The notes beneath the pieces were generated by a model, which worked only from the letters and a program-made list of their open reading frames with translations, was not told the origin of the DNA and searched no databases. Shown piece by piece: positions 13,462 through 40,757 of a stretch of 64,000 nt of DNA. Position 1 is the stretch's first letter; each line of letters starts with the position of its first letter. Source of the DNA: Escherichia coli (lineage in GTDB: Bacteria > Pseudomonadota > Gammaproteobacteria > Enterobacterales > Enterobacteriaceae); assembly GCF_050920415.1 (NCBI RefSeq), contig NZ_CP169309.1. One strand, 5' to 3'. The position numbers and the translations under genes were made by a program.

Positions 13462-14580
13462 CTAGCTGGCCGGGAACATAACTAACAAAACGTATCCCAC
13501 CAGCGCCGCCCACAACAGCATCGGTATTGAATAGAGATGGAAACGCCACCAGATACGGCGATCGTTTGCCATCCGTAACGCAATCAAATTTGCCAGCGAT
13601 CCGGGTAATAAACCAAAGCCACCCACGTTTACCGCCCATGCCAGTAATAAAGACGGTGGCACATAATTGAGCAGCAAAATCGTGCTCGGCACGTTACTGA
13701 TCACCTGCGATAAACCAATTGCCGTTAACCATAATCCGGGTTCGGATAAATGGCTCACATTGCTCAACACGCCCTGCAAAGCTGGCAGTTGGGTCAGCAA
13801 ATGGACGTCGATAAACATCGCCATAAATACCAGCAGCAGAGTCCAGTCCACGCTGATCACCACGCGACGAGCCAGCAGCGCAAAGCCCGCCGCTACAATC
13901 ACCAGTCCCCACAGCTCTTGTTTTAACTCCAGCGCCGTCAGAAAGACGATATACAGCCCCAGACAACTCCACACCAGCCGCGGTTTCCACTCAGGTGTTT
14001 GCGCCCCCGTATGATATTGCAGCGCCTTTCCAGGGAAACAACACCAGCACAGTAGCAGGAGTGTCAGCATCATTGCGCCAGCCAGCGGTGCCATTTGGGC
14101 AATAAACCCGGCAAACGAAAGACCAGAACGACCCCAGATAAGAATATTTTGCGGGTTGCCAATCGGCGTCAGTAGCGAACCCGCATTGACTGCCAGCGCC
14201 TCAAAAATAATCAGTCGATTAACCGGGATCTCACACAGTCTTTTTAGTGTGATTGTCAGCGGAACAACAATAAACAGCGCGACATCGTTGGTCAGAAATG
14301 TTGAAAGCAACGCCGCCGCCAGCACCATAAACATTGCCAGCCGACGCTCAGTAGCAAAGCGGCGCACCATTTTGCGCCCCAGCACATCAAAATAACCGCT
14401 TAACTCCACACCTTTGGTCAGCAGCATCAGGCCACTGAGGGTGATGATAGTGTGCCAGTCGATAGCAGCAAGCCAGGATTTCGGTGCAAAGGGAACGAAA
14501 AAACTTAATCCGATGCCAACAAGAATTAATAACTGAAAAAAGCGATCGCCTTGTAGCGTGCGTAAAAAAGGCAGGCTCAT
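13462..14580 (-). CDS. ybiR: Inner-membrane transporter, ArsB/NhaD-like permease
   Basis: 372-aa highly hydrophobic ORF; start overlaps mntR stop (operon arrangement). Confidence 0.88.
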
Positions 14581-15044
14581 TTGGCACCGTGTTTCTGGGT
14601 AAACAAACGAAAGGCATCCAGCGTCTCTTCACTGACATGGTGCTCCATGCCTTCCGCGTCGCGACGAGCGATTTCCGGGCTGACGCCCAACACCAACAAG
14701 AAATTTTCGACTATCTGATGTCGCTCGCGGCTTTCCTGCGCCAGTTTCTCTCCTTCTGCCGTTAAAAACACGCCACGCCAGGGGATCATTTCAATCAGCC
14801 CCATGGTTGCCAGTCGTTTGAGCATTTTAGCCACCGTCGGTTGCGAAACGCCCAGACGAGCAGCCATGTCCACCTGACGAGCTTCCCCCACTTCCCTGAT
14901 CAAGTCAGAAATCAGCTCAACGTAATCATCAATAAGCTCGCGCCGGTGTGCCTCTCTGACCTGGCGGAACCCTTCAACGTGCTCTTCCACATTCACTAAC
15001 TGCGTCACTTTTTTTGCTGTTGGCGTACCTGCGCGACGACTCAT
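14577..15044 (-). CDS. mntR: Manganese-responsive transcriptional regulator (DtxR family)
   Basis: 155-aa ORF with N-terminal HTH and DtxR-like metal-binding C-terminus. Confidence 0.93.
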
Positions 15045-15149: not shown

Positions 15150-15160
15150 TATAATATAGC
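15150..15160. repeat. Left copy of the 11-bp direct repeat tataatatagc (putative attL core)
   Basis: Exact 11-bp match to 47440..47450; host-like sequence to the left, AT-rich foreign sequence to the right. Confidence 0.6.
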
Positions 15161-15409: not shown

Positions 15410-16984
15410 ATGGCTAAAAACGCAAAAAACGAGAAACCAAAAAAGTTAGCTTATAGAATAAAAAGTATTAATATTGAAAAATTAAAAGGTATAAATAACT
15501 GCCCTATTTCCTTCCCAGCAGACAGGTCTGTAACTGCTATAATGGGAATTAATGGTTCAGGTAAATCAACAATATTGCACGCTCTATCATGTGTTTTCAA
15601 ACCCAAAGAAAAATCATCCCAAGAAAATAATAGATTTTCTGACTTCTTTACCCCTCACAATGAAAATAACTGGCAAGATAGTAAATTCTCAGTAAAATTT
15701 CGAGCGGGAGAGATAAAAAACAATGGTAATAAAGTCTTTTTTGAAGAAATAGATAATGAAGAAAAGAAAGATATTGTTTATGGCAAGGATAAAAGGTGGA
15801 AACCAGTTTACGCAAGAAGACTTGAAAGAGAATCTATATATATAGGATTACAAAATCTTGCAACGTTAGCTGACAATACAGGAGCATCAAGATACTCAGA
15901 ATATGAAAGAGTAGATATTTATGATAAAGATATAAAGAATCAAATGATATTAGCTCTGAATAAAATCTTAGATGCAGATTACAACGATTTGTTTGAATGC
16001 CGCACCATTAAGGGAAACAAAAAATTCATAGGCATGGTTAAAAACGGCATTGAGTATACAGAACATACTATGGGTGCTGGAGAAAAGAGAGTCTTTGAGA
16101 TAGTTAAAAATGTTTATAATGGAAAGTTAATGCCCAATGGTTTTCTAATCATTGATGAAATAGATGTTTTGCTACATGAAAGAGCTTTTCATGAATTAAT
16201 TAATTTTCTTATCGAAGAAAGCAAGTCTATGTGTTTTGAGGTTGTTTTCACAACACATAGAGAATCCATAATAAAGTTTAAAAATCAAATCAATATAGTA
16301 AGTATATGGAACATAGGGAATGGAATAGAGGCTTATCCCGGCGTTTCTGCGGATGCTCTTCGACAGATATCCAATGTAGAACCTGATATGGTCAATGTGT
16401 TTGTAGAAGACAACTTAGCAAAAACAGCACTAAATATTTTAGTTGAAAGTGAAGGTATGAATGAACAAGTTGATATCTCGCTTTTTGGTTCGGCTGAGAA
16501 TTCAGCTGTAATTTTGTCAGGACTTAAATTAACTGGCAAACGAATTGATACAAGCCTGGCAATTTTAGACGGTGATTACTATATTACCCTCCCTGAAAAG
16601 ACCAAAATGGTTGATAGAGTGTTATCTGGAACAGATAAAAAAGTAGAAAAAAAAGAAGTCTTATCAAGAATATTCCAATTCAATTTAGATGTGACTGACG
16701 TCAAAGGCTCTCCAGAAAAAAACCATCGTGATTGGTTTGAATCTATAGACGAAAACAATATTTCGGAAAATGATAAGACAATGTTTCTTAACCTGAAAAA
16801 ACATTCTACAAGTATTGGTGCTTTAACTGATTATCATGAATATTATCCAGAGTTAGCTCGAAGGTCAAAATTAGATAATATTGAGTACAAAGTTTTGAAT
16901 TATATTAGTAAGTATAGTAATAAATGGGATTTTTACATAAATGATATTAGAAATGAAATAAAAAAAGCAATTGCAGCGATCTAA
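15410..16984 (+). CDS. ABC-type (AAA_21/AAA_15-like) ATPase fused to a C-terminal Toprim/DUF4435-like domain; OLD-family or fused-PARIS-like candidate defence protein
   Basis: Walker A GINGSGKST, signature-like GAGEKR, Walker B LIIDEIDVLLHE, H-loop TTH; C-terminal half has VFVEDN and ILDGDY resembling Toprim E and DxD; about 30 percent GC; own terminator. Confidence 0.6.
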   Translation: MAKNAKNEKPKKLAYRIKSINIEKLKGINNCPISFPADRSVTAIMGINGSGKSTILHALSCVFKPKEKSSQENNRFSDFFTPHNENNWQDSKFSVKFRAGEIKNNGNKVFFEEIDNEEKKDIVYGKDKRWKPVYARRLERESIYIGLQNLATLADNTGASRYSEYERVDIYDKDIKNQMILALNKILDADYNDLFECRTIKGNKKFIGMVKNGIEYTEHTMGAGEKRVFEIVKNVYNGKLMPNGFLIIDEIDVLLHERAFHELINFLIEESKSMCFEVVFTTHRESIIKFKNQINIVSIWNIGNGIEAYPGVSADALRQISNVEPDMVNVFVEDNLAKTALNILVESEGMNEQVDISLFGSAENSAVILSGLKLTGKRIDTSLAILDGDYYITLPEKTKMVDRVLSGTDKKVEKKEVLSRIFQFNLDVTDVKGSPEKNHRDWFESIDENNISENDKTMFLNLKKHSTSIGALTDYHEYYPELARRSKLDNIEYKVLNYISKYSNKWDFYINDIRNEIKKAIAAI

Positions 16985-17020: not shown

Positions 17021-17181
17021 AGGTTTAAATTATAGTTGCTAATTTCTACTCTTTGTTCCCTCTGTTCGTGCACGTTTCAGGTAGTAAGCTCTCCATCGAA
17101 CCATAGAGATTGAACGCTTTGATTTTTTTTTACATACTGTCTGAAGCTCATTTACTAAGTATTGATAGTCAGGATGACAAC

Positions 17182-17808
17182 ATGACCTCCTACGATGAAC
17201 TTAAAGAATGCATCCGCCTTGAAGTCATTGGCCATGACAAATCCTTTTCATGGCGTAAAGCGTTACTTCGTACCCGACGCAACCAGAAGAAGCACTTCCT
17301 GTTCTGGTGGCGTATCGCTTCATGGCTCTATGGCCAGAATAGTAAGTTCAAAAAGCGCATTGCCCGCAGAATTGAAAACCGCCTCAAGTACCTGCATAGC
17401 GTTGATATTTCGCTGTCATGCAAAATCGGCAAGGGTTTAAACATTGCTCATCTGAACGGTATTGTCATTACTGACAATTGCGTGATTGGTGATTTCGCCG
17501 ACCTGAAGCAAGGCATCACCATAGGGTTACGCACCGACAGTGCCGACGCGATGATAGTCATTGGTGATCATGTTGATATTGGCTGTAATTCGTCCATTCT
17601 GGGCGGCAAGGTTACGATCGGAAACAATGTCACCATTGGGGCGCATTCACTGGTACTTCAGAACATCCCCAGCGACACCGTTTATAAAAACAAGATCACG
17701 CCGGTGTATACATCCAAACTACCGCAGCAGGAATATCAGGAAAATCGGCCTTTTGTCACTGGCAAGGCGATAAAAGAAGCGTCCCGTTCCGCAGAAGCGG
17801 TGCTGTAA
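17182..17808 (+). CDS. Hexapeptide-repeat (left-handed beta-helix) acetyltransferase, serine/sugar O-acetyltransferase-like
   Basis: Tandem hexapeptide repeats (GIVITDNCVIGD, VIGDHVDIGCNSSILGGKVTIGNNVTIGAHSLV); start chosen at ATG 17182 with AGGA RBS, alternative start at 17110; AT-rich. Confidence 0.65.
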   Translation: MTSYDELKECIRLEVIGHDKSFSWRKALLRTRRNQKKHFLFWWRIASWLYGQNSKFKKRIARRIENRLKYLHSVDISLSCKIGKGLNIAHLNGIVITDNCVIGDFADLKQGITIGLRTDSADAMIVIGDHVDIGCNSSILGGKVTIGNNVTIGAHSLVLQNIPSDTVYKNKITPVYTSKLPQQEYQENRPFVTGKAIKEASRSAEAVL

Positions 17809-18186
17809 TTTCGCTGAACAAATTTCAGTTATGAAGATTGCATAAATTTACGTGCAGCCCGCGCCAGCTCTTACAAGCGGGCTAATCTCTATAATGTCTG
17901 GCTTATCTCCCAACGATCCACGAACACCGCCTAAAATATAATTTTCCCTTTATTATCTGTGCGTTATGATTTTACACCGATCCTTAACAGATCCTCTTTA
18001 CTGAAAAAAATGAAATTTCTTTCAATCATTTCAGTTCCTGTTCTCCGCAAAGCCGCCAGTAATGGTGCGGTCTGGCGCTCTGGTTTGTAGAAAAATAAAA
18101 CTGAAAAAATTTCCAGATCCAGAAACCGCAGGCGGGTGCGGTGTAGCGCCGTTTTTGTCTGCGAAAGATTTATTTTGTCGGCGCAT

Positions 18187-18230
18187 CGCAGCGCCAGCGC
18201 AGCGCCAGCGCAGCGCCAGCGCAGCGCCAT
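18187..18230. repeat. Four tandem copies of an 11-bp GC-rich unit (cgcagcgccag)
   Basis: Read directly: cgcagcgccag x3 then cgcagcgccat, in a noncoding spacer between the cargo and the last phage gene. Confidence 0.8.
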
Positions 18231-18352
18231 GCGCACGATCTTTTATGTGTGTTGCGTTGGGTTAATTTGTTGCCTGAAGTGCTGAGGGCGCGTTCTGCTG
18301 CGTCTGAGGAAGGGTATGAAAAAGCCCGCATTATGCGGGCGTGTTGTCATGG

Positions 18353-20056
18353 TCAGGCAATTATATTCTGGTACTTGCTCCGGGTCTGCCCTGCTTTCGT
18401 CGCCGTCTGTACGAACGCGTCAGCATTGGTTGGCGTCCCAACAGTGGGGTGTGAATGGTTCGCGCATTGCTGCGCCAGCTCTGCCAGTAAATCAATGGTA
18501 TCCAGCATCATGGTCAGGGCGTTGATACTCTCGCTGCCAATATGGACAGTTGCCCCCATGACCTGCTGACCGCCAGCGGCCACTGATTTACGCAGTGCGG
18601 CAATCTTCTCTGTCAGGCTTTCGCCAACCTCCACGGCTACAGCACCGCCCACTTTAGTGGACTGCTGTCCTGCTATGTCCGTTTCTTCGTTTCCTTCAAT
18701 ACTGGCCAGCCTGTTTCCTTTCACCGCCTGGCTATAATCACCGGCGCTTACCTGCTGGATGGCTCCGGCCAGCAGTGTGGCGGTTCCCAGTACCGTGGTT
18801 TTATCCGTGGCTTTCACCGTGGTTTCACGGCTGACCAGTTCGCGCTGTTCCGTATCGGCTTTTACGGTTCGCGCCATCGATGTTTCGCTGATGGTCTGAT
18901 CGGTCTGCCTTACCCAGTCGCCCGCCTGAGTCACCCTCTGGGATACTTCTTCCCGCTGCTGCTGCAACTGTTCACCGGGTTTAACGTCCGGCAGACTGGT
19001 GCCATCCGGTAGCGTCTGCCTGATAAAAGGTTTATCCGGTCTGCCTCCCGTGAATGCAACCTCAACCAGCGTCCCTTCTGGCGGAAACTGAAACATACCT
19101 GAATCATTCCCGGCCATTGGTACCGGCAGCGGCACCGCTGAATAAACAGGCGTCTGATTGTCCGGGTTTCCGTCTGCGTCAAGCAGCTGCACGTCCACGG
19201 CGTAACGTGGCCGGAAGGGATCGGCAAAGTTACCGCTTTTTACCGGCTCTGAATGCGCCACAACTCTGGCCATCTTTGGCAAATGAAGCCCGGATGCCAG
19301 TTCCGGGTAATGGCTTTCAATCTGCCGTTGCGCCGGTGTTTTCTGCAAAGGTTTACCCGTTGCGCGGTTTCTCGGCGTCCATGTGATCGCCATCGCGTCA
19401 TTAGTCAGGTGAACTTTAGTCACGCGTTCACCGTTCATCTCCACCCCTGGCCGCATAGTCTGGATCACTGGTAATGTCACAGAGTTACCGCCAGCAGCCC
19501 CCTGGCTGAACTCTGACGGGATTTCTACGGGGCGACCGGCAAATAATGACTTTTCTGCGCCGCCGACGTAAAGCGAACCATCAGGCAACTGGTACCAGAT
19601 GTAATCCTGGATACTGAACGCCCTTCCCAGATTGTTCAGCAACTGATAACCAGTACCGTTATGGGTAAAATGTGGGATGGGGGTATCGCTGTACTGTGCA
19701 TCAGGCACACTGACCGTGATCCCGCTGTTTTCTTCCAGCCAGCTGGCAACCTCGCGTAAAGTTGGATGTTGAAATGAGCACGGCCACATCCTTTCAAATA
19801 CACCTGCCAGCTCACGAATGAACAGACGCTGAAAACCGTTTTCAGCGGGCTGCGATCGCTCCACATACCCCGTAAACCAGCGCAAAAGCAGATCGGTATA
19901 CCCCACATCCAGCCGCACCAGTTTTCCGGTGTAATCGGTTGTTGTCTCTGCGGTGATGAAGCCCCGGCCGCAGCTGTTCAGCTCCAGTACCAGGCTGGCA
20001 TCCACCAGGTGAACTTCATCAGTTGAAAGGTAAAGGCGTTTTACTGGTTTCATCAT
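18353..20056 (-). CDS. Phage protein, last gene of the tail operon; possibly baseplate hub / late-control-D-like (uncertain)
   Basis: 567-aa ORF translationally coupled to the upstream gene, phage-like GC content; function inferred from position only. Confidence 0.35.
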   Translation of the reverse strand: MMKPVKRLYLSTDEVHLVDASLVLELNSCGRGFITAETTTDYTGKLVRLDVGYTDLLLRWFTGYVERSQPAENGFQRLFIRELAGVFERMWPCSFQHPTLREVASWLEENSGITVSVPDAQYSDTPIPHFTHNGTGYQLLNNLGRAFSIQDYIWYQLPDGSLYVGGAEKSLFAGRPVEIPSEFSQGAAGGNSVTLPVIQTMRPGVEMNGERVTKVHLTNDAMAITWTPRNRATGKPLQKTPAQRQIESHYPELASGLHLPKMARVVAHSEPVKSGNFADPFRPRYAVDVQLLDADGNPDNQTPVYSAVPLPVPMAGNDSGMFQFPPEGTLVEVAFTGGRPDKPFIRQTLPDGTSLPDVKPGEQLQQQREEVSQRVTQAGDWVRQTDQTISETSMARTVKADTEQRELVSRETTVKATDKTTVLGTATLLAGAIQQVSAGDYSQAVKGNRLASIEGNEETDIAGQQSTKVGGAVAVEVGESLTEKIAALRKSVAAGGQQVMGATVHIGSESINALTMMLDTIDLLAELAQQCANHSHPTVGTPTNADAFVQTATKAGQTRSKYQNIIA

Positions 20057-32524: not shown

Positions 32525-33229
32525 TTATCCTTGTGTTGTCAATTTTCGGATGCGAGCGGCAATCGTCTGCCGTGCCGTTCTGACGCCAATTTTTGAGTAG
32601 TGCTTTTCTGCAATAGCCAGCAATTGATCGGCCTTTTCCAGCGTTTCAATATCATCCACGCCCGCCGCCGTTTTCTGGCCATCGTCATTGCGTAGTAACT
32701 CCTGACCGGCAAACTTGAACCATTTGGCCGTCACTTGCTCATGCAGTCGCCAGGTGTTTGCCACCCGCTCAAACGTGCGGGTGAAATAAGGCTCCACACT
32801 TTCCCCGCGCCCTGCGGTTTCCTGCGCCCATGCCAGCATCGTATCCGCCACGAAAGTGGGAAAATTGCTGCGTAACCGATCCGGGGTTGCCTGCTGCTGG
32901 CTGATAGCAATGTCAGCCCAGTCCAGCGCCTTATCCAGATCGCCCACGTCAAACAGCCAGATAACACACCAGGCGAAAACCGGATTTGCATACACCTGGC
33001 CACTCTCCAGATAGGCTTCCACAGTGGGAACCCAGCGCGGCAACAGCACATCGCGTTTATACCCGGCGCGATCGGCGATGGTAGGCAGACTTCGAACATG
33101 TTCCACATCCGTTTCCAGCGCCCTGATCAGCAGGTGCATACTTTCCGTGGTTTCCAGTGCCTTGCTGCGTTTCAGCTTTTGTTCCATCGCAATGCGCTGG
33201 CTGTGACGCTGCGCGGGGGAAAGTGCCAT
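32525..33229 (-). CDS. Terminase small/endonuclease subunit (gpM-like)
   Basis: 234-aa ORF after the major capsid gene, as in the P2 O-N-M-L operon. Confidence 0.65.
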   Translation of the reverse strand: MALSPAQRHSQRIAMEQKLKRSKALETTESMHLLIRALETDVEHVRSLPTIADRAGYKRDVLLPRWVPTVEAYLESGQVYANPVFAWCVIWLFDVGDLDKALDWADIAISQQQATPDRLRSNFPTFVADTMLAWAQETAGRGESVEPYFTRTFERVANTWRLHEQVTAKWFKFAGQELLRNDDGQKTAAGVDDIETLEKADQLLAIAEKHYSKIGVRTARQTIAARIRKLTTQG

Positions 33230-33232
33230 TTA

Positions 33233-34270
33233 TCAGCCCTCCACCGGTTCGGAGACTTTGCCGATCGTCACTGCGGATTCATCAATGGCCGCATACAGCT
33301 CCGGCACTTCCACCGCGTAACCTTCATTGCGCAGGTATTTGTTTTCGAACTGCTTACGATCTTCAACAAACTCCGCCTTACGCATACGGGTATTGCGCTG
33401 GGTGTAGATGTGCAGGTTAGAAAGCGGCGTAACCACCATGCGTTTACCCGGCATAAACGGCGGGATAATAGCCGGACGGCCAGCAATGGTACTTCCCAGC
33501 ATCTGCGCCGCGATTTTTTCAGTCGGACGGTCTGCTGCCTGATACAGTCGGTATTGTTCAGCAGCGACCAGATCGGCACCAACCAGGACAACCAGACGCG
33601 GGTCATTACGGAACTGTGCCGGGATTTTGGCGTTAATCAGATCGGACGCCATTGCATCCAGTGATTTGTAATCCCCGGCCTCATCAAGCACCACGGCATC
33701 CGTCATAATCTGATTGCCGCCCAGCAGCGTTTTCATACGCTCATGCCAGCCAACGTTCACATCCTCGCCGTTCGGGTTAGTTTCCGGATCAGTGGTTTTC
33801 GCGCGACTTTTACCGTTAAAACCAATGCGCAACATATCCAGTGCAAAAGCCTGCGTGGTGAATGCCTGCACCAGGTTGTAAAACTCGTTTTCGTCCTTAC
33901 CGGCGTTTGCCCAGACAGAAAGCAGATCCCAGCGCAACGCGGCACAACTGTCTGTTTCAACTAGGGAATAGTCATTACCATCAACGCCTACCTGACGAAT
34001 GAAACGGCCATTTTCGCTGCGGCCGGTATGCAGCACAGAGGAACCGACAGAGATCACCTGGCCACTCAGCTGGTCAACATCCAGACAGGTGATCATGTTC
34101 AGGAACTCGACGGACTCCAGCAGCGCAAGACGCAGCGCATTTTCCTGCGGGTCATTCAGGGAAAAATATCGACTGGTATCACGCGCACCAAACTGCTGCG
34201 CCATCCCCGCCGAATATTTATCCAGTAAATCCCGCGCACGATTATTAAGGTGCATAAAACTCCCTCGCAA
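33233..34270 (-). CDS. Major capsid protein (gpN-like)
   Basis: 345-aa ORF with GFNGKSRAKTTDPETNP and VGWHERM segments resembling P2 gpN as recalled. Confidence 0.75.
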   Translation of the reverse strand: MRGSFMHLNNRARDLLDKYSAGMAQQFGARDTSRYFSLNDPQENALRLALLESVEFLNMITCLDVDQLSGQVISVGSSVLHTGRSENGRFIRQVGVDGNDYSLVETDSCAALRWDLLSVWANAGKDENEFYNLVQAFTTQAFALDMLRIGFNGKSRAKTTDPETNPNGEDVNVGWHERMKTLLGGNQIMTDAVVLDEAGDYKSLDAMASDLINAKIPAQFRNDPRLVVLVGADLVAAEQYRLYQAADRPTEKIAAQMLGSTIAGRPAIIPPFMPGKRMVVTPLSNLHIYTQRNTRMRKAEFVEDRKQFENKYLRNEGYAVEVPELYAAIDESAVTIGKVSEPVEG

Positions 34271-34317
34271 TTAAGCGATTTAAAAATATGTTCTGGACTA
34301 ATCAGCAATAAAGCGAA

Positions 34318-35121
34318 TTACAGGAAATTAAATTTCCCAGCTTTATCTTTAATAGTACGCCCCGGTGTACGGGTGTTTTTATTACCCAGATCGTTAAAGC
34401 GGGTTACGATTTCTTTTGCATTATCGCGAATTGCCGCGAATTCCTGCGTATCCACCACTTCAGCGATTGTGTCAACATCCCCCTGAACGTCATTCAGTTG
34501 AGTTTCAATTTTCGCCACTCGCGCTTCCAGATCGTTCACCACATTGGCAAGCGCCTGTAATTTATCTTCATCCGGGGCAGGATTATCCTGCGGCGTTTCA
34601 TCTTCAAACTTTGGCTTAATACCAAACAGTTTCTGCCAGTTCTTCATTCTTGCTTCCTGTTTAATTTTTCCGTCACGGGAAATTACACAACTGTAATATC
34701 CCTGCTTTGTTAATTTATTGCGCCGACTACTAAAGCGCAGCCGTGTGGTGCCAACGCTGGCAGGTGTATCTGTTACCGCCAGCCCTTTCAGGTAAGTACG
34801 CCCGCTACCGCGCCAGTTTTCTTCCGGCTCAATGGAGAAGAACAAAAGCTGATCTTCATGATTTGCGAAAATCAGACGCATATTCGGGCAAAGGCTGACA
34901 TATAACCGTGCCAGTCCATCTTTACCATCATTCCAGGTGGCTTCCAGCACTTCACCAAAATTCCCGCAATCATCCTCATGTTCTGGCCAGATTAAAGCGA
35001 CATAGTGGCTATAGTCATAGGTTTCCCCCATATCAATGATCCACTGCCGTTTAATTACCCTGCCGTCAACGGTATCCCCTTCAGTAGCAACACACAGCCA
35101 GTCAGTTTTTAAATGTGACAT
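34318..35121 (-). CDS. Capsid scaffolding protein (gpO-like)
   Basis: LKGLAVTDTPAS segment resembling P2 gpO; coiled-coil C-terminus; divergent from the terminase gene. Confidence 0.7.
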   Translation of the reverse strand: MSHLKTDWLCVATEGDTVDGRVIKRQWIIDMGETYDYSHYVALIWPEHEDDCGNFGEVLEATWNDGKDGLARLYVSLCPNMRLIFANHEDQLLFFSIEPEENWRGSGRTYLKGLAVTDTPASVGTTRLRFSSRRNKLTKQGYYSCVISRDGKIKQEARMKNWQKLFGIKPKFEDETPQDNPAPDEDKLQALANVVNDLEARVAKIETQLNDVQGDVDTIAEVVDTQEFAAIRDNAKEIVTRFNDLGNKNTRTPGRTIKDKAGKFNFL

Positions 35122-35282
35122 ATCCCCCCTGTTCCACTCCCTGACGCTGCAAATCAATTATTGCCAAATAAAACCGCCACCGCATTACGCTTTATTCTGA
35201 ACAGTTCGGTTATAACGCTTTACCGAACAGACACGAATTAACACCACCGTTTTTTCATCACAGCCACGGCATAATTATCCGC

Positions 35283-37058
35283 ATGGCTAAATACTCTGAA
35301 GAATTAAAAGGCGTTGTTCGCGCACTTTATCTGCGCCGCTATACGCCAAAGGAAATCGCATCTGAATTAAATCTGCCGAATGCGCGGATCGTTTACTACT
35401 GGGCGGAGAAATATAGCTGGGCGGATTTGCTCAGTTTTGAAAGCACAGAGGAAGCGATTGAACGCCGTTACCAGTTGCTGGCCAGCCGCGATAACAAAAC
35501 CGATCTCGACCTGAAAGAAATGGACATGCTCATTGCTCATGCCACGAAACTGCGTGCGCAGAGTAATAAACATAAAGAGAAAATGGCCAGCGGTCAGAGT
35601 TCCGGGCAAGCAGCTGCGCGGGACAACAATGACGACGAACCGCGCAGCAAACGGAAGTACAAGAAAAACGATATTACCTCGCTGACGCAGGAGGACTTTG
35701 ACGCATGGGCTGAGGAACATCTTTTTGAATATCAGAAACACCTGCGCAATAACATTGGCCAGCTTGTCAGGAACATCCTGAAAAGCCGCCAGATCGGTGC
35801 GACCTGGTATTTTGCGTTTGAAGCGTTTGAAAACGCGGTGATGACCGGCGATCCGCAAATCTTTCTGTCAGCGTCAAAGGCTCAGGCTGAAGTGTTCCGG
35901 TCTTACATCGTGAATATTGCAGAGCAGTATTTCGGTATTACGCTGACCGGTAACCCGATCCGCTTAAGCAACGGCGCAGAACTGCGTTTTCTCTCCACCA
36001 ACAAAAACACCGCCCAGTCCTACAGTGGCCACCTGTACTGTGACGAATATTTCTGGGTACCAAACTTTGCAAAACTTAACGAAGTGGCCAGCGCAATGGC
36101 CACGCATGACAAGTGGCGTACCACCTATTTTTCAACGCCATCGGCAAAAACGCACCAGGCGTACCCGTTCTGGACGGGCGATGAGTGGAAACAGGGCAGT
36201 AAAAAACGTGCGGCCATTAAGTTTCCTTCCTTTAACGAAATGCGTGACGGCGGGCGACTCTGCCCGGATGGGCAATGGCGCTACGTCATTACGATGGAAG
36301 ATGCCATTGCGGGCGGTTTCAACCTGGCGAACATCGAGAAACTTCGCAACCGCTACAACGACGCCACTTTTAACATGCTCTATATGTGCGTGTTCGTTGA
36401 CAGCAAAGATTCCGTTTTCAGCTTTTCCGACCTGGAAGCCTGCGGCGTTGAAATCGACACCTGGCAGGATCACAACCCTGATGCAGCGCGGCCATTCGGT
36501 GACAGACCAGTTTGGGGCGGCTTTGACCCGGCTCGCAGCGGTGATTTGTCCTGTTTTGTCATCATCGCCCCGCCGATGCTCGCCGTGGAGAAGTTCCGCG
36601 TTCTGAAGGTGATTTACTGGAAAGGCATGAACTTCCGGTACCAGGCAAAACAGATCGAGCAGTTGTTTAAAAAATATAACTTCACTTATCTGGGTGTGGA
36701 CGTTACCGGCATTGGCCAGGGTGTTTTTGACAACATTCAGCATTTTGCCATGCGCGTGGCCGTCCCTATTCGTTATGACCTGAACACCAAAAATAAGCTG
36801 GTACTGAAAGCGGTGGACGTGGTGGAAAGCCAGCGTATTGAATGGGATAAAAACCTGAAAGAGATCGCTGCCAGCTTTATGTCTGTGCGCCGAACCACGA
36901 CACAAAGCGGCAACGCCATGACGTTTGTCGCTGACCGTAGCCAGGATACCGGCCATGCGGAGGCATTCTGGGCGATTACCCACGGTCTACATAACGAACC
37001 CCTTAACTATGAAAACAAACCGAAATCCCGCTGGGGTGTAAGGAAAGAGGCAGCATGA
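35283..37058 (+). CDS. Terminase large (ATPase) subunit (gpP-like)
   Basis: 591-aa ORF, same size as P2 gpP; divergent from the O-N-M-L operon. Confidence 0.75.
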   Translation: MAKYSEELKGVVRALYLRRYTPKEIASELNLPNARIVYYWAEKYSWADLLSFESTEEAIERRYQLLASRDNKTDLDLKEMDMLIAHATKLRAQSNKHKEKMASGQSSGQAAARDNNDDEPRSKRKYKKNDITSLTQEDFDAWAEEHLFEYQKHLRNNIGQLVRNILKSRQIGATWYFAFEAFENAVMTGDPQIFLSASKAQAEVFRSYIVNIAEQYFGITLTGNPIRLSNGAELRFLSTNKNTAQSYSGHLYCDEYFWVPNFAKLNEVASAMATHDKWRTTYFSTPSAKTHQAYPFWTGDEWKQGSKKRAAIKFPSFNEMRDGGRLCPDGQWRYVITMEDAIAGGFNLANIEKLRNRYNDATFNMLYMCVFVDSKDSVFSFSDLEACGVEIDTWQDHNPDAARPFGDRPVWGGFDPARSGDLSCFVIIAPPMLAVEKFRVLKVIYWKGMNFRYQAKQIEQLFKKYNFTYLGVDVTGIGQGVFDNIQHFAMRVAVPIRYDLNTKNKLVLKAVDVVESQRIEWDKNLKEIAASFMSVRRTTTQSGNAMTFVADRSQDTGHAEAFWAITHGLHNEPLNYENKPKSRWGVRKEAA

Positions 37059-38116
37059 GTAAAAAGAAACGCTTTGTTAAGCGCGACCAGCGCGGCGACA
37101 AATCAAAAAAGATGAGCATCATCACATTCGGCAAACCTGAACCGGTTCTGACTACTGGCACAGATTACCGTGATATCTGGTACGACAATGCCGCCGATCA
37201 CTTCACCCAGCCGATTGACCGGCTGGCACTCGCGCAACTGATTAATCTTAACGGTCAGCACGGCGGCATCATTCACGCCCGTAAAAACATGATTGTTTCA
37301 GACTATCAGGGGGGCGGGCTTATTCACGACCAGCTGGAAGCGGCAGCGTTTGACTATATAACCTTTGGGGATATTGCGATTGCCAAAATTCGTAACGGCT
37401 GGGGCGACGTGATCGCACTTGAACCCTTGCCCGGCCTGTATATTCGCCGCCGTAAAGTCAGAGATAACGCGCTGGATAAGCCCGGTGACTACGTGGTGTT
37501 ACAGGAAGGGGAACCACAGGTATGGCCAGAAGAAGATATTATCTTCATCAAAATGTATGACCCGCAACAGCATATCTACGGACTGCCGGACTACATCGGC
37601 GGCGTGCATTCCGCGTTACTTAACAGTGAAGCGGTCATTTTCCGACGCCGCTATTACCACAACGGTGCGCACACTGGCGGTATTCTTTATACCCGCGATC
37701 CCAGCATGACGGACGAAATGGAAGAAGAAATTGAACAGCAGCTGCGTGACAGTAAAGGGATCGGTAACTTCTCCACCATCCTGGTAAACATTCCTGGTGG
37801 AGACGGTGACGCCATCAAATTCATTGAAATGGGGGATATTTCCGCGAAGGATGAATTTGCCAACATCAAAAACATCAGCGCCCAGGACATTCTGAACGCG
37901 CACCGTTTCCCTGCTGGCCTCGCCGGTATTGTCCCGCAGAACACTGCCGGACTGGGGGATGTTGAAAAGGCTGAACGCATTTACAAGAAAAGCGAAATTG
38001 CCCCCATCCAGCGCCGTTTCATGATGGCCGTTAACAACGATCCTGAAGTACCAGAAAGGTTGCACCTTAACTTTGATTTAAGTTACACAGAATCAACGGA
38101 TAAGGGTGCGGCATGA
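37055..38116 (+). CDS. Portal protein (gpQ-like)
   Basis: 353-aa ORF translationally coupled to terminase; P2 P then Q order. Confidence 0.75.
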   Translation: MSKKKRFVKRDQRGDKSKKMSIITFGKPEPVLTTGTDYRDIWYDNAADHFTQPIDRLALAQLINLNGQHGGIIHARKNMIVSDYQGGGLIHDQLEAAAFDYITFGDIAIAKIRNGWGDVIALEPLPGLYIRRRKVRDNALDKPGDYVVLQEGEPQVWPEEDIIFIKMYDPQQHIYGLPDYIGGVHSALLNSEAVIFRRRYYHNGAHTGGILYTRDPSMTDEMEEEIEQQLRDSKGIGNFSTILVNIPGGDGDAIKFIEMGDISAKDEFANIKNISAQDILNAHRFPAGLAGIVPQNTAGLGDVEKAERIYKKSEIAPIQRRFMMAVNNDPEVPERLHLNFDLSYTESTDKGAA

Positions 38117-38166
38117 GGCGAAACAGGCTAAAATCCAGGCATCATTTAACAGCTGGAGCATGGAAT

Positions 38167-38436
38167 ATGCGAGTTCTGAAAATCGAATGCCCGGAATGCG
38201 GCTCAAAGGCTGTTATTCGTAAAACAAACAGGAAGCACCGGCAGATTGCTGATATTTACTGCGCCTGTTCAGATGTTGAGTGTGGCCACACGTTTGTTAT
38301 GAATCTGACGTTCTCCCACACTCTCAGCCCCAGCGCTAAAACGGGTGATGCGATGGTGCAAAAAATACTGAATGCACTTTCACCCGATCAGCGCCAGATG
38401 GCATTAGACCTACTGAAAGCGACTCCCGCCGCCTGA
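38167..38436 (+). CDS. Ogr/Delta/B-family zinc-finger late-gene activator
   Basis: CPECG ... CACSDVECGH four-cysteine zinc finger near the N-terminus, start MRVLKIECPECG. Confidence 0.65.
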   Translation: MRVLKIECPECGSKAVIRKTNRKHRQIADIYCACSDVECGHTFVMNLTFSHTLSPSAKTGDAMVQKILNALSPDQRQMALDLLKATPAA

Positions 38437-38735
38437 AATGCCCCCATTCTGGGGGCGTTGCCCTTCCTTTTTAACCATTTCGCGAACCTCTCCCGCAAGC
38501 TCTCCAATCCAGGCCAAAGCAATTGTTTTTTCTCTCTGGTTACTTTCGTAAACATGGGCAATTTTGGCCAATAATTCAATGCGTTCCAGCTGTGCCGACG
38601 CCTCCAAAAGATCCATTTAGCCCCCACAAGCAATAAATAACTGGATATATATACAGTACACCTTAAAGCACGAATTGTGAAACTTAATTTCCTGCCATCT
38701 ACTGACAAATGAATGTGTTACACACACATGCACAC

Positions 38736-40757
38736 CTATAACCACCCCGGCCATAGCTCCTGCAATGGTTCGTTTCGTGTTTCCTTCAACCGCCCATTGC
38801 GGTAAATCAGCGCCCCCTGACCAAATATCAAACCACTACCCCGCAGGAGAATGGCTATTTCTTCATCGGAACCCTCAAAACCCCGACTGCGTAATTCCAG
38901 TTTTAACCGTCTGCGGGTTCCTCCCTCCGTACAGTTATTGACAGAACTCCAAGGGGCGGCGTTGCCGCCAGAAAAACCCGCCTCCGCTGTCGCTTCGGCC
39001 AACTTCGCAACCTTTTGCCACTTAACAAGACGGGTGCAAACTTCTGAATCAGGAACCAAAGGAGAATAAACACCCTGTACGCGCTGCACGTCCTCCGCGT
39101 ATTCGTTGCCCTGTTCCGTAATTTCATAGGCCAGACGAACAACCAGATCACGGCGGGCAACCAGTGCACCGCCCTGCGCCTGGGTATATGCAGCCCAGTC
39201 CCCGACATCAGCAGCGGCCAGAACCGCATCCATTCTGCGATCTGTCAGTACCTGATCCCTCAACCGACGCAGCTCACGCCAGACGGTTACCGGCGCGCCA
39301 CCAATCTGCTGAAACTGGCGAATACGCCAGCGTGAAGCCCACGCGGAAACGGACTTAGCCATATCACGCAGGTTTTCGCCGGTTTCTTCATCCTGTTCAC
39401 CATCCAGCGCAAAACCATCAATATTTTTTGAAATGTATTTCGCGATGTAGCCCGTGGCCGAACCTTTGGCGGGATCGATAGCTTCAACATGAAAACGCGC
39501 CTTCAGCGCCTTTTCAGATTGCAGTTCTTCAGAATCAGTAATTCTGGCGTGATAACAAAGAATATCGCGTACCGTGTCCACGTCCTGCGGACGCATAAAA
39601 AGCAACATATGCCAGTGCGGTGTCCCGTCATGGTGAGGCTCAACAACCCGAAACCCAAAGACATGAATACCCGCACGCGAGATCGCTGCGCGTGCTTTTG
39701 CCCATACGCCACATAAATAGCGCTGAGTATCCTGTGGTGTACTTCCATCCCACTGTGAAACAAAGCCCCCTTTGCTGTGCACCGCATGGAATCGCGATGG
39801 CGCGGTGATGGTGTAAAACTCACCGGCCAGCCCTTCTTCATTGGCCATATCTTCAAATCCTCTCATTCTTACCATTAGTTCACAGCGACGGATCGCCGGA
39901 TTTGCAACGCTGCGGTGCACCATGCTGTCCAGTGCAATGCGCAGCCCTTCATCATTCAGCAGATCAAACTTTTTGAAGAACTCCAGATTCCGCTTTTTCT
40001 GTTCTATCCATTCCTCTAGGGTTTTACGGGATACATAAGCACTGGCCGCTTTTTGTACCTGCCCCACCGCGATGGCCATATGTTCGCGCTGCGTATCACG
40101 CGCACGTTTAAGACGCAGGTACCACCATTCCGGCGCCATCATGCGCAGTATCCCGGATTCCGCCTTACGCGTTTCCAGTTGACCTTCATTGGCCTCATGA
40201 TCAGCCCAGTACGGCGGCTGGTTATTCAACATCAGGCAACACGCACAAAGATGGCGGTATGATTCCAGGGTTCGGCGGTGCAGTTCTCTGGCGTCGTCAG
40301 TGCCGGATTCAAACTGTTCGGTGAAGTCATAAAGTGACTGGGAAATCCAGCCAGATACCTGACCAGCCAGTTTTTTAAGATCAAGACGGTCTAATGACGG
40401 CAAGCGCTCCAGCGACTTACCAAAAGGAAGATCAGCAGCATCAGCGGCCAGAGAGTAACGCGCAGCCACTTTTCGCAGACGAGGCAATACATTCTCGCCA
40501 ATAGTTTTACGCAAGAATGTATTGGCTCGGCGACGCCCGTCACGGCCAGAAAAAAGCTTTTCGTAACGACGGCCAAAATACCCGGCTAACCAGTCGGGTA
40601 TCTCATGAAGGTACTTTGAGCGCCATTCGTAATCCTGCGGGTTAACAGCCCACAGGCGGCGTTCTGTGATAGTCGCGTCTGCCGGTGTGCCTGGTGCGAA
40701 AGTTTCCCGCCTCCAGGCATCAACGGTATAGCATTGTTCATTTATTGCCAGCGTCAT
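38736..40757 (-). CDS. Rolling-circle replication initiator / nickase (P2 gpA-like, HUH endonuclease)
   Basis: 673-aa ORF with HUH motif PHWHMLLF and downstream catalytic tyrosine region (GYIAKYISK). Confidence 0.8.
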   Translation of the reverse strand: MTLAINEQCYTVDAWRRETFAPGTPADATITERRLWAVNPQDYEWRSKYLHEIPDWLAGYFGRRYEKLFSGRDGRRRANTFLRKTIGENVLPRLRKVAARYSLAADAADLPFGKSLERLPSLDRLDLKKLAGQVSGWISQSLYDFTEQFESGTDDARELHRRTLESYRHLCACCLMLNNQPPYWADHEANEGQLETRKAESGILRMMAPEWWYLRLKRARDTQREHMAIAVGQVQKAASAYVSRKTLEEWIEQKKRNLEFFKKFDLLNDEGLRIALDSMVHRSVANPAIRRCELMVRMRGFEDMANEEGLAGEFYTITAPSRFHAVHSKGGFVSQWDGSTPQDTQRYLCGVWAKARAAISRAGIHVFGFRVVEPHHDGTPHWHMLLFMRPQDVDTVRDILCYHARITDSEELQSEKALKARFHVEAIDPAKGSATGYIAKYISKNIDGFALDGEQDEETGENLRDMAKSVSAWASRWRIRQFQQIGGAPVTVWRELRRLRDQVLTDRRMDAVLAAADVGDWAAYTQAQGGALVARRDLVVRLAYEITEQGNEYAEDVQRVQGVYSPLVPDSEVCTRLVKWQKVAKLAEATAEAGFSGGNAAPWSSVNNCTEGGTRRRLKLELRSRGFEGSDEEIAILLRGSGLIFGQGALIYRNGRLKETRNEPLQELWPGWL

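Follow-up and report, generated by a model that had tools for sequence, protein, structure and literature searches.

Where in a P2-family prophage should one look for the cos site, and what fills the stretch in which the late head operon runs up against the end of the early operon? The earlier note on this DNA had observed that an Ogr-like gene faces replication gene A and, reasoning by analogy with P2, had placed cos in the gap between the two. The window, i.e. the whole 64,000-nt stretch of Escherichia coli DNA analysed here, contains a prophage bounded by attL at 15150 and attR at 47440, and this prophage belongs to the HP1/K139/phiO18P branch of Peduoviridae and is Quadragintavirus/ESSI-2-like. 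The segment in question is very probably the junction of the late head operon with the end of the early operon in a P2-family prophage of the ESSI-2/Quadragintavirus-like kind (Table 1). Judged by sequence features, their conservation and homologies, the junction most plausibly consists of three working parts (an ogr-like gene, a hairpin terminator, and an SOS promoter with its Tum-like gene) and holds no cos; there is a high probability that the positions of ogr and cos are swapped in this prophage relative to P2 and 186.

Table 1. Coordinates of the junction, the predicted cos site and associated prophage genes in the window.
Feature	Position	Strand	Details
Conserved cos region	~17949-18175		3' of the D-like tail gene
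Predicted cohesive-end sequence (cos core)	18131-18146		GGCGGGTGCGGTGTAG; homologue of the phiO18P/PV94 16-nt cohesive end
D-like tail gene	18353-20056	-	
Large terminase gene	35283-37058		Upstream of the portal gene
Portal gene (P2 Q homologue)	37055-38116	+	PF04860, E 1e-17; portal annotation in ev040 and ESSI-2
Ogr/Delta-like C4 zinc-finger late activator gene (predicted)	38113-38436	+	107 aa; PF04606, phrog_603
Intrinsic-terminator-like hairpin	38437-38472	+	Stems 38437-38446 and 38450-38459; T-run 38468-38472
Tum-like gene, predicted SOS-induced anti-repressor	38616 to 38410	-	68 aa; phrog_698, phrog_8554
Shine-Dalgarno-like GGGGG	38621-38625	-	4 nt upstream of ATG 38616; read from the sequence
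LexA (SOS) box (predicted)	38639-38658		+ strand reads AACTGGATATATATACAGTA; core CTG-N10-CAG at 38641-38656
-10 hexamer TACTGT	38658 to 38653	-	Overlapped by the LexA box
-35 hexamer TTCACA	38676-38681	-	17 nt upstream of TACTGT
Replication gene A (rolling-circle initiator)	40757 to 38736	-	PF05840, E 4e-106
186-type CI immunity repressor gene	43819-44403	+	PF07022 and PF16452; predicted target of the Tum-like protein

The portal gene is the penultimate gene of a terminase-portal-ogr late operon, and the zinc-finger activator that the earlier note had seen right after it is borne out by profile searches. Its 107-aa product matches Pfam Ogr_Delta along the whole profile (70.8 bits against a cut-off of 26.3; E 9e-20; positions 1-47 of 47) as well as the PHROG 'transcriptional regulator' family phrog_603 (E 2e-40), and PGAP labels close homologues in E. 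coli genomes as ogr/Delta-like. The cysteine spacing read off the translation, CX2C-X22-CX4C (C8, C11, C34 and C39 in the 89-aa form), is that of P2 Ogr, 186 B and P4 Delta, which have the same PF04606 zinc finger; a role as activator of the late operon is presumed. The long-form ATG overlaps the portal stop codon (ATGA), and an in-frame ATG is kept at the portal stop in all seven relatives examined; the start of the ogr-like gene is probably translationally coupled to that stop codon. An alternative start, ATG 38167 with GGAG in front of it, would yield a protein of 89 aa.

The position of the gene had been presented as a departure from P2, and within this branch it is not unusual. An Ogr homologue lies just 3' of the portal gene in K139 (orf13), HP1/HP2, phiO18P, PV94, F108, the Yersinia phage YenM_324, the Salmonella phage SI7, ESSI-2 and the ev phages, and ogr after portal is the normal placement in the HP1/K139/phiO18P branch. 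By analogy with P2 Ogr and 186 B, the protein would activate late promoters. P2-type Ogr late promoters carry a TGT-N12-ACA dyad near -55. The window contains ten exact matches to this dyad, none of which falls in the late intergenic regions, the head-gene promoter region included, and in this respect the head promoters of the prophage are unlike P2-type Ogr targets. The divergent promoter region of the head genes, at 35158-35282, has instead a conserved dyad, TTCGG-N13-CCGAA, that occurs once in the window, and the Ogr binding site may differ from the P2 type in the HP1/K139/phiO18P branch.

Just past the ogr-like stop codon lies a conserved GC hairpin at which the terminase-portal-ogr transcript very likely ends, as predicted from its fold and conservation. 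The hairpin at 38437-38459 has a folding energy of -17.1 kcal/mol (z -2.4) on the plus strand and is not significant on the minus strand. In an alignment of six phages (A1) the C5/G5 stem is conserved while the loops vary, and the stem is directly followed by a T-run in ev040, ESSI-2 and S.Kent. Terminator-like sites were also flagged here by a generic scan; an Rfam scan of 37800-39000 returned a single match at chance level. The hairpin falls within the 3' codons of a small ORF on the opposite strand.

This ORF, recorded in the earlier note as a 68-aa minus-strand frame overlapping the 3' end of the activator gene, overlaps the ogr-like gene by 27 nt and starts 120 nt past the stop codon of gene A on the same strand. 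The gap of about 300 bp described there likewise holds up, measuring 299 bp (38437-38735). The 68-aa protein matches PHROG 698 along its full length (E 2e-22) and phrog_8554 (E 4e-11), and PHROGs 698, 8554 and 1993 are common to it and to Tum of phage 186. BLASTP aligns it with residues 5-42 of 186 Tum (E 1e-5), and in hhalign the family alignment (A2) matches Tum with a probability of 95% (E 1.7e-8), residues 5-43 falling on residues 5-43. In Yersinia phage YenM_06.16-2, the gene product annotated 'tum protein' is 41% identical to it. At the protein level, residues D2, R12, I13, L15, A33, L34, W36 and E39 are invariant. A search of the PDB with the Tum-like family profile returned no solved relative. 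A longer, 106-aa minus-strand ORF in another frame (38708 to 38388) was rejected as spurious, as its family match is unconvincing (E 0.014) and it covers both the LexA box and the Shine-Dalgarno sequence.

Could the minus-strand ORF be untranslated, with the SOS promoter making an antisense RNA across the 3' end of ogr and its terminator that regulates the late activator? Any SOS transcript must indeed cross, in antisense, the terminator and then the final 27 nt of ogr, the hairpin works poorly as a terminator when transcribed in the minus direction, and PGAP leaves the ORF uncalled in 7 of 12 E. coli genomes listed. Yet the protein is conserved where the DNA is not: the residue pattern persists between the window and ev040, the DNA of which has diverged past BLAST detection. 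Moreover, all relatives examined (five related phages from four genera) keep an uninterrupted ORF together with its start codon and Shine-Dalgarno sequence, the G-rich block is conserved at the Shine-Dalgarno position in alignment A1, and the PHROG profile match is strong. We consider an untranslated ORF very improbable and treat the 68-aa frame as a gene.

Upstream of this gene, we are confident that a LexA-controlled promoter of the 186 p95 type, predicted from its motifs, drives the Tum-like ORF. The LexA box has two mismatches to the 20-nt consensus and is the only such site in the 64 kb, where none is expected (sites of this quality are absent from shuffled sequence). One mismatch lies in the core, the second half reading CCAG rather than ACAG. 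TACTGT-N8-ACAGT is kept in S.Kent, ev040, ev015, ESSI-2 and YenM_324 with the inner 8 nt varying, so that neither CTGT nor ACAG changes across five other phage records, drawn from about four genera, in an intergenic region that is otherwise 44-69% identical; the TTCACA -35 hexamer is conserved in S.Kent and ev040. From this conservation we infer LexA binding. A generic sigma-70 scan of 37900-39000 called no promoter; the SOS promoter was missed because its -10 hexamer matches the consensus at only three of six positions, and it was recognised solely by comparison with 186 p95. The latter, an SOS-dependent promoter, reads TTCACA-17-TACTGT, i.e. has identical hexamers and spacing, and carries an annotated LexA site with the box starting at the -10. 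The 299-bp gap is thus wholly explained by the terminator hairpin, the Tum-like gene and its predicted LexA-controlled promoter.

The prophage repressor is a 186-type CI, 45% identical to 186 CI over 177 aa (E 1e-46), and the arrangement suggests an induction switch. In the lysogen, LexA would keep the p95-like promoter shut; upon DNA damage, RecA-mediated cleavage of LexA would allow transcription of the small gene, the product of which would bind the 186-type CI and free it from its operators, inducing the prophage. Tum joins an anti-repressor half and a DinI half in one protein (PMC3121763), and the region of homology lies within the half to which the literature assigns the anti-repressor activity. 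Read from its sequence, the 68-aa protein is a short Tum-N-domain protein that lacks the DinI-like half, not a full-length Tum. Induction of a P2-like prophage of E. coli HS needs tum, and evidence from lexA(Ind-) supports its dependence on LexA (PMC11195241).

Inactivation of CI by the Tum-like protein, which we infer from these homologies, has a competitor in which the small ORF is SOS-regulated without being an anti-repressor: a moron that serves lysogenic conversion or modulates the SOS response (acting like DinI, or as a toxin or inhibitor), induction proceeding by another route. The anti-repressor function is deduced from only about 40 homologous residues of about 31% identity, and all 66 Enterobacteriaceae database homologues of the protein are named 'hypothetical'. 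In other relatives, cargo that varies fills the space between gene A and ogr (orf10-12 in K139, orf10-14 in HP1, methyltransferases in SI7). In addition, one Tum-like allele is found with two different CI alleles: when we considered co-variation of the two proteins, ev015 turned out to have the Tum-like allele of ev040/ev129 and a clearly different CI, a case that offers no support for specific Tum-CI pairing and is mild evidence against strict pairing. Against the moron reading, however, the homologous part of Tum is the anti-repressor half and not the DinI half; the prophage has a repressor of a type for which induction by way of an anti-repressor has been described; the gene's location and the layout of its promoter copy the 186 SOS operon; and searches of the protein against Pfam and NCBIfam gave no match, to DinI or toxin families or otherwise. 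On balance a moron without anti-repressor activity appears unlikely, and a predicted SOS-induced anti-repressor remains our preferred reading of the gene.

The Tum-like gene always ends antisense within the 3' end of ogr, reading through the ogr terminator hairpin, and one may ask whether this convergent overlap is itself regulatory, transcriptional interference or an RNA duplex timing the hand-over from Tum to Ogr. Were that so, SOS transcription would enter ogr in antisense and late-operon transcription would enter tum, linking two P2-family switches that in P2 and 186 lie physically apart. We regard this as a rather improbable elaboration of the predicted SOS switch.

What, then, of cos? 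The proposal that the 299-bp gap holds it, as P2 cos lies just beyond portal gene Q, has the P2 and 186 maps on its side, in both of which about 190 bp at most separate cos from the 3' end of the portal gene; the gap is, furthermore, the only stretch adjoining the portal gene that belongs neither to gene A nor to the late genes. However, it is filled with a conserved gene, promoter and terminator. As the earlier note had itself remarked, a P2 cos sequence is not recognisable: the P2 cos 19-mer (GGCGAGGCGGGGAAAGCAC) has no match at up to three mismatches anywhere in the window, and the gap contains neither the P2 nor the 186 form. Aligning the gap with the cos sites of P2, 186 and relatives gave no significant similarity; there was no significant alignment of 38400-38760 or 38050-38200 with the P2/186 cos regions, and when 38400-38760 and the portal-ogr junction were compared by blastn-short with five cos regions (P2, 186, HP1, phiO18P and PV94), nothing beyond words expected by chance turned up. 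The best E value against cos regions was 0.11 for 38400-38760, compared with 0.002-0.008 for the region on the D side.

It is on the D side that relatives with the same gene order have cos mapped or annotated, after the D-like gene. In HP1, phiO18P and PV94 the cohesive ends lie past the D-like tail gene, beside attP/int: HP1 cosL is beside attP, after orf35, phiO18P cosL/cosR are also on the D-like-gene, attP/int side, and the 16-nt 5' overhang of PV94 was determined by run-off sequencing (PMC3986222). The ends of the PV94 record are homologous to window 18131-18146 and its flanks. This 16-mer, the only exact match to the core in the window, is identical to the annotated 16-nt phiO18P cos at 12 of 16 positions, and the flanking boxes CCCGCC/TGCGG (the slash marking the junction), TTTTTTCAGTTTT (the T6CAGTTTT box) and CCAGACCGCGCCA are shared with phiO18P and PV94. 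It lies between the D-like gene and attL, an order found in HP1, phiO18P and PV94 too.

Virion-derived records point to the same place. The 15-nt terminal repeat of ESSI-2 corresponds to window 18132-18146, and the genome records of ev015, ev129, ev239 and ev040 have adapter junctions inside the 16-mer, so that five close relatives break or carry adapters there. By proxy, virion ends thus map away from the gap, the outcome that the earlier note had named as speaking against its proposal. Nucleotide 1 of the ev records was set 'relative to reference genomes', so where these records begin is not in itself evidence independent of ESSI-2, whereas the adapter remnants are. The junctions follow 18134 or 18139 and precede 18141 or 18143, and do not fix the exact nick positions. 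The SI7 record was opened arbitrarily within the portal gene and is uninformative for cos, and the papers on ESSI-2-like coliphages and on Yersinia phages hold no information on cos or tum. Taken together, there is a strong case that the prophage cos, predicted by homology, sits near 18131-18146, 20 kb from the gap, with the D-like tail gene on one side and the cargo genes next to attL on the other, and a cos site in the gap is extremely unlikely.

The P2 map thus gave a plausible but wrong inference for cos, which is now corrected: with ogr and cos exchanged in the HP1/K139/ESSI-2 branch, the place to look for cos is beyond the D-like tail gene. Our understanding of P2-family biology is not altered by this, and the finding is an ordinary one apart from the assignment of a function to a 'hypothetical protein'. 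PHROG 698, a family called 'hypothetical' or missed in prophages of Escherichia, Salmonella, Citrobacter, Cronobacter and Yersinia, gains a predicted function as an SOS-induced Tum-type anti-repressor. If this assignment is true, DNA damage would induce PHROG 698-bearing prophages via LexA, which bears on the spread of their defence genes and acetyltransferase cargo.

Several known systems can be set beside this locus. The predicted cos has the core homology, junction CCCGCC/TGCG, boxes and location of those of phiO18P and PV94; the stretch from cos to the D terminator includes, in the window, 4.4 copies of an 11-nt tandem repeat that the relatives lack. In P2 and 186 the ogr/B gene follows tail gene D, next to att, and has its own promoter, whereas in the prophage it closes the terminase-portal operon as its final cistron. 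K139 orf13, an unannotated ORF in HP1/HP2, phiO18P gp19 and PV94 gp21 are zinc-finger homologues of 37-61% identity, and the same order (terminase, portal, in some cases a small ORF, then the zinc-finger gene facing a convergent small gene from the rep side) recurs in K139, HP1/HP2, phiO18P and PV94. K139 and PV94 have an extra small gene between portal and zinc-finger gene (orf14 and gp22, respectively) that the prophage lacks, and the convergent partner gene of these phages is unrelated, K139 orf12 belonging to phrog_5581 and orf14 of HP1/HP2 being HicB-like.

The closest parallel for the early side of the junction is the SOS operon of 186 (p95, LexA site and tum), which occupies the same place downstream of gene A on the same strand; in the prophage, no further large gene of the early operon comes after gene A, and the SOS promoter lies downstream of it. 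Homology between the 68-aa protein and 186 Tum extends over the first 43 residues, whereas Tum as a whole has 146 aa with a DinI-like C-terminal half that the prophage protein does not have. In addition, 186 has an orf97 that is missing from the prophage, and its tum ends before cos, while the prophage gene ends antisense within the ogr gene and terminator. In PSP3 and Fels-2 the halves of Tum are split between two genes, of which the upstream one has anti-repressor activity (PMC3121763). There a dinI-like gene follows, whereas none does in the prophage; by description, the split tum of these phages is, like the prophage gene, a stand-alone short N-terminal Tum module (PMC3121763).

A P2-family prophage spans ~15.15 to 47.45 kb of the window. 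By megablast it belongs with the ESSI-2-like coliphages: the Quadragintavirus phages ESSI2_ev040, ev015 and ev129 give matches of ~94%, and Cronobacter phage ESSI-2 is more remote. ORF mapping and Pfam searches recovered, at the coordinates that the earlier note had given, an Ogr-like gene after the portal gene, a gap between it and replication gene A, and a convergent 68-aa minus-strand ORF; the overlap of this ORF with the Ogr-like gene is 27 nt.

Features of the prophage and its flanks, in window positions
Feature	Position	Strand	Remarks
mntR	14577-15044		flanks prophage
attL	15150-15160		11-bp core TATAATATAGC
SMC_N/AAA ATPase gene	15410-16984		between attL and cos; PADLOC HEC-04, E 3e-33; ATPase-Toprim/OLD-like
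Hexapeptide acetyltransferase gene	17110-17808		adjoins predicted cos
Predicted cos core	about 18131-18146		GGCGGGTGCGGTGTAG
11-nt tandem repeat	18187-18235		CGCAGCGCCAG; 4.4 copies, 97% matches
D-like tail gene	18353-20056	-	
Small terminase, capsid, scaffold genes	32525-35157	-	ORF map
Inverted repeat	35205-35227		TTCGGTTATAACGCTTTACCGAA
Large terminase	35283-37058	+	ORF map; Pfam Terminase_6N/6C
Portal	37055-38116	+	ORF map; Pfam Phage_portal
Ogr-like gene	38113-38436	+	ORF map; Pfam Ogr_Delta PF04606
Portal stop to internal Ogr ATG	38117-38166		50 nt; holds AGGCTAAAATCCAGGC
Hairpin stems	38437-38446 + 38450-38459	+	-17.1 kcal/mol, z -2.4; T-run at 38468-38472
ogr-to-A gap	38437-38735		299 bp
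Tum-like 68-aa ORF	38616->38410	-	ORF map
LexA-like box	38639-38658		AACTGGATATATATACAGTA
Replication gene A	40757->38736	-	ORF map; Pfam Phage_GPA
CI-like repressor	43819-44403		
497-aa protein	44772-46265		between CI and int; PADLOC candidate PDC-S49, E 3e-106; no Pfam domain
attR	47440-47450		11-bp core TATAATATAGC
mntS (small gene)	47520-47648		flanks prophage; insertion in mntS upstream region

The 68-aa ORF is a genuine gene: PHROG 698 matches it over its full length (E 2e-22), and S.Kent 1-2-1, ev040, ev015, ev129, ESSI-2 and Yersinia phage vB_YenM_324 (YenM_324) all keep it unbroken, Shine-Dalgarno sequence and start codon included, its DNA having diverged so far that BLAST returns no window-ev040 alignment within the ORF body. 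All 66 database homologues, from Escherichia, Salmonella, Citrobacter, Pluralibacter, Raoultella and Cronobacter, are named 'hypothetical', and tblastn gives a weak match to a Yersinia phage vB_YenM_06.16-2 gene that bears the annotation 'tum protein'. Residues 5-42 of Tum, the SOS-induced anti-repressor of coliphage 186, align with the ORF (E 1e-5), the same three PHROGs are matched by both proteins, and a 15-member family profile matches residues 5-43 of Tum (probability 95%, E 1.7e-8); the homology extends over ~40 residues only. According to Lemire et al. (PMC3121763), Tum consists of a DinI-like half fused to an anti-repressor half, and in PSP3 and Fels-2 the halves are two genes, with anti-repressor activity in the upstream one. 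Unlike 186 Tum, the 68-aa protein corresponds to the N-terminal module only, with no DinI-like sequence after it.

The LexA-like box lies twenty-five bases upstream of the ATG of this ORF, has 2 mismatches to the 20-nt LexA consensus and is the sole such site in 64 kb (0 in 100 shuffles). In a six-phage alignment of the A-to-ogr interval, TACTGT-N8-ACAGT is kept in the other five phages; the inner eight bases vary, the flanking sequence is poorly conserved, and the second half of the window box reads CCAG. Upstream of the ORF the minus strand reads TTCACA-17 nt-TACTGT, the same hexamers and spacing as in p95, the promoter of 186 annotated as SOS-dependent, where the LexA site also begins at the -10. 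The prophage repressor is 45% identical to 186 CI (E 1e-46), with both CI domains present. The best reading of the small ORF makes it a predicted short Tum-type anti-repressor under LexA control. Phage ev015 carries the same Tum-like allele as ev040 and ev129 with a different CI, and the alleles of the two genes therefore do not co-vary strictly. Perhaps the protein recognises a part of the CI surface that is conserved, or perhaps its assigned function is incomplete.

Sequence and comparison establish the gene identities, the architecture and conservation of the promoter and LexA box, the terminator, and the Tum and CI homologies; the mechanism that we propose goes beyond these. In the lysogen, LexA would occupy the box over the -10 hexamer; upon DNA damage LexA would be removed and the 68-aa protein made, which would inactivate CI and derepress the early operon (cox...A). 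The phage would then replicate, and the Ogr-like protein would switch on the late genes; encoded by the final cistron of a late operon, this protein would boost its own synthesis. Induction of a P2-like prophage of E. coli HS needs tum and cleavable LexA (preprint, PMC11195241).

The earlier note took the position of the Ogr-like gene as a departure from P2. The gene scores 70.8 bits against PF04606 (cut-off 26.3), and the zinc-finger spacing of its product, CX2C-X22-CX4C, is that of P2 Ogr. By tblastn, homologues lie directly 3' of the portal gene in ESSI-2, ev239, YenM_324 and Salmonella phage SI7, and likewise in Vibrio K139 (orf13, annotated as a zinc-finger protein), PV94, Aeromonas phiO18P, Pasteurella F108 and HP1/HP2 (an ORF without annotation). 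Across the HP1/K139 branch of Peduoviridae, then, ogr normally comes after the portal gene, and its location here is typical of the lineage, not an oddity. The Ogr assignment is correct, yet already standard: PGAP uses the ogr/Delta-like name in 28 of 5,426 complete E. coli genomes. In the classic HP1 and HP2 records no CDS is annotated between orf14 and the portal gene; HP2 (AY027935) has an Ogr-like ORF at 9290-9553, minus strand (tblastn E 1e-13), under the annotated T14 terminator, the equivalent HP1 gap being 10420-10756.

All seven relatives examined have an ATG that overlaps or abuts the portal stop and from which the zinc-finger ORF can be extended in frame, which makes a start at 38113 and translational coupling to the portal gene plausible; the alternative, ATG 38167, is preceded by GGAG and is the start used in the ev040 annotation. 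The DNA between portal stop and internal ATG holds a block, AGGCTAAAATCCAGGC, kept across genera (AGGTTAAAATCCAGGC in ESSI-2, AGGCTAAAATATAGGC in ev239, ACGTTAAAATTCCAGA in YenM_324), which may be coding (N-terminal extension 'RLKSRH') or may regulate the expression of ogr. The P2 Ogr dyad TGT-N12-ACA was not found in the late intergenic regions of the window. An inverted repeat, TTCGGTTATAACGCTTTACCGAA, occurs once in the window, in the divergent scaffold/terminase promoter region, and is kept as TTCGG-N13/14-CCGAA in ev040, ev239 and YenM_324, SI7 retaining the TTCGG half only; the Ogr-like activator may bind here, this repeat being a candidate substitute for the P2 dyad.

Downstream of ogr, a C5/G5 stem with variable loops is kept in all six aligned phages, and T-runs directly follow the hairpin, in the ogr direction, in ev040, ESSI-2 and S.Kent. 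Given this conservation and the T-runs, the hairpin is the predicted terminator of the terminase-portal-ogr transcript. In every relative the Tum-like ORF runs antisense through it, with its stop codon within ogr.

The suggestion that the ogr-to-A gap contains cos, the cohesive-end packaging site, did not hold up. The P2 cos 19-mer is absent from the whole window, and the cos regions of P2, 186, HP1, phiO18P and PV94 gave only chance-level words against 38400-38760 and 38050-38200. Same-order relatives have cos mapped or annotated after the D-like gene. In HP1, cosL is nucleotide 1, ~250 bp from attP and int, and cosR follows orf35 (the D-like gene); phiO18P has annotated 16-nt cosL and cosR in the same position; in PV94 a 16-nt 5' overhang was found by heat and ligase restriction tests and run-off sequencing (PMC3986222), and the ends of the record lie between the D-like genes and int. 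In the orientation of the D-like gene, with a slash at the cohesive-end junction, the window (...AAACGGCGCTACACCGCACCCGCC/TGCGGTTTCTGGATCTGGAAATTTTTTCAGTTTTATTTTTCT...) aligns with the ends of PV94 (...CTCTTCCTCACCCGCC/TGCGCGC...TTTTTTTCAGTTTTTATTTTCT) and phiO18P (...CTCATCCGCTCCCGCC/TGCGGGC...AAATTTTTTGCAAAAG...CCCAGACCGCGCCAG). The 16-nt core GGCGGGTGCGGTGTAG has a single exact match in the window, and the 15-nt terminal direct repeat of the ESSI-2 record, GCGGGTGCGGTGTAG, equals 18132-18146.

Untrimmed adapter points to the same place. In ev040 (NC_049393/LR597638) 42 nt of adapter are inserted within the core (...GGCGGGTGC[adapter]GTGTAGCGCC...; 29623-29664, internal to the record), and Nextera-type adapter at the record ends of ev015, ev129 and ev239 (NC_049395 1-48; NC_049394 both ends; NC_049392 last 77 nt) abuts phage sequence inside the 16-mer. 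In these four public records every adapter junction coincides with the cos core. Nucleotide 1 was chosen by the authors 'relative to reference genomes', which means that the start position by itself depends on ESSI-2; the adapter left at a single site in four libraries indicates, as independent evidence, that physical DNA ends lie there, the junctions not defining nick positions. On the alignments, the ESSI-2 repeat and the adapter junctions, we place the predicted cos at about 18131-18146, inside the prophage, and the cos-in-gap hypothesis is unsupported and, through the relatives as proxies, effectively refuted.

A 'hypothetical' CDS of ev129 (30741-30926) runs into the record end holding adapter sequence. 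Between the predicted core and the D-like terminator lies the tandem repeat CGCAGCGCCAG, with ~1-2 copies in ev015 and ev129 and none in ESSI-2, which could serve as a cosB-like array that binds terminase or could have arisen by simple slippage. SAT-like genes adjoin cos in the ev phages, as the acetyltransferase gene does here. Two cargo genes carry defence signatures, those of the ATPase and the 497-aa protein. The attachment sites share their core between mntR and mntS, and integration may have cut mntS off from some of its regulatory DNA.

P2 and 186 have ogr (or B) behind D, beside att, and cos behind the portal gene, whereas in the prophage cos is predicted after D and ogr follows the portal gene; judged by sequence comparison, the two have exchanged places. 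The small ORF and its promoter are laid out as in 186, where p95 is found downstream of A and transcribes tum. The Tum-type call offers a useful function for a family labelled hypothetical until now.
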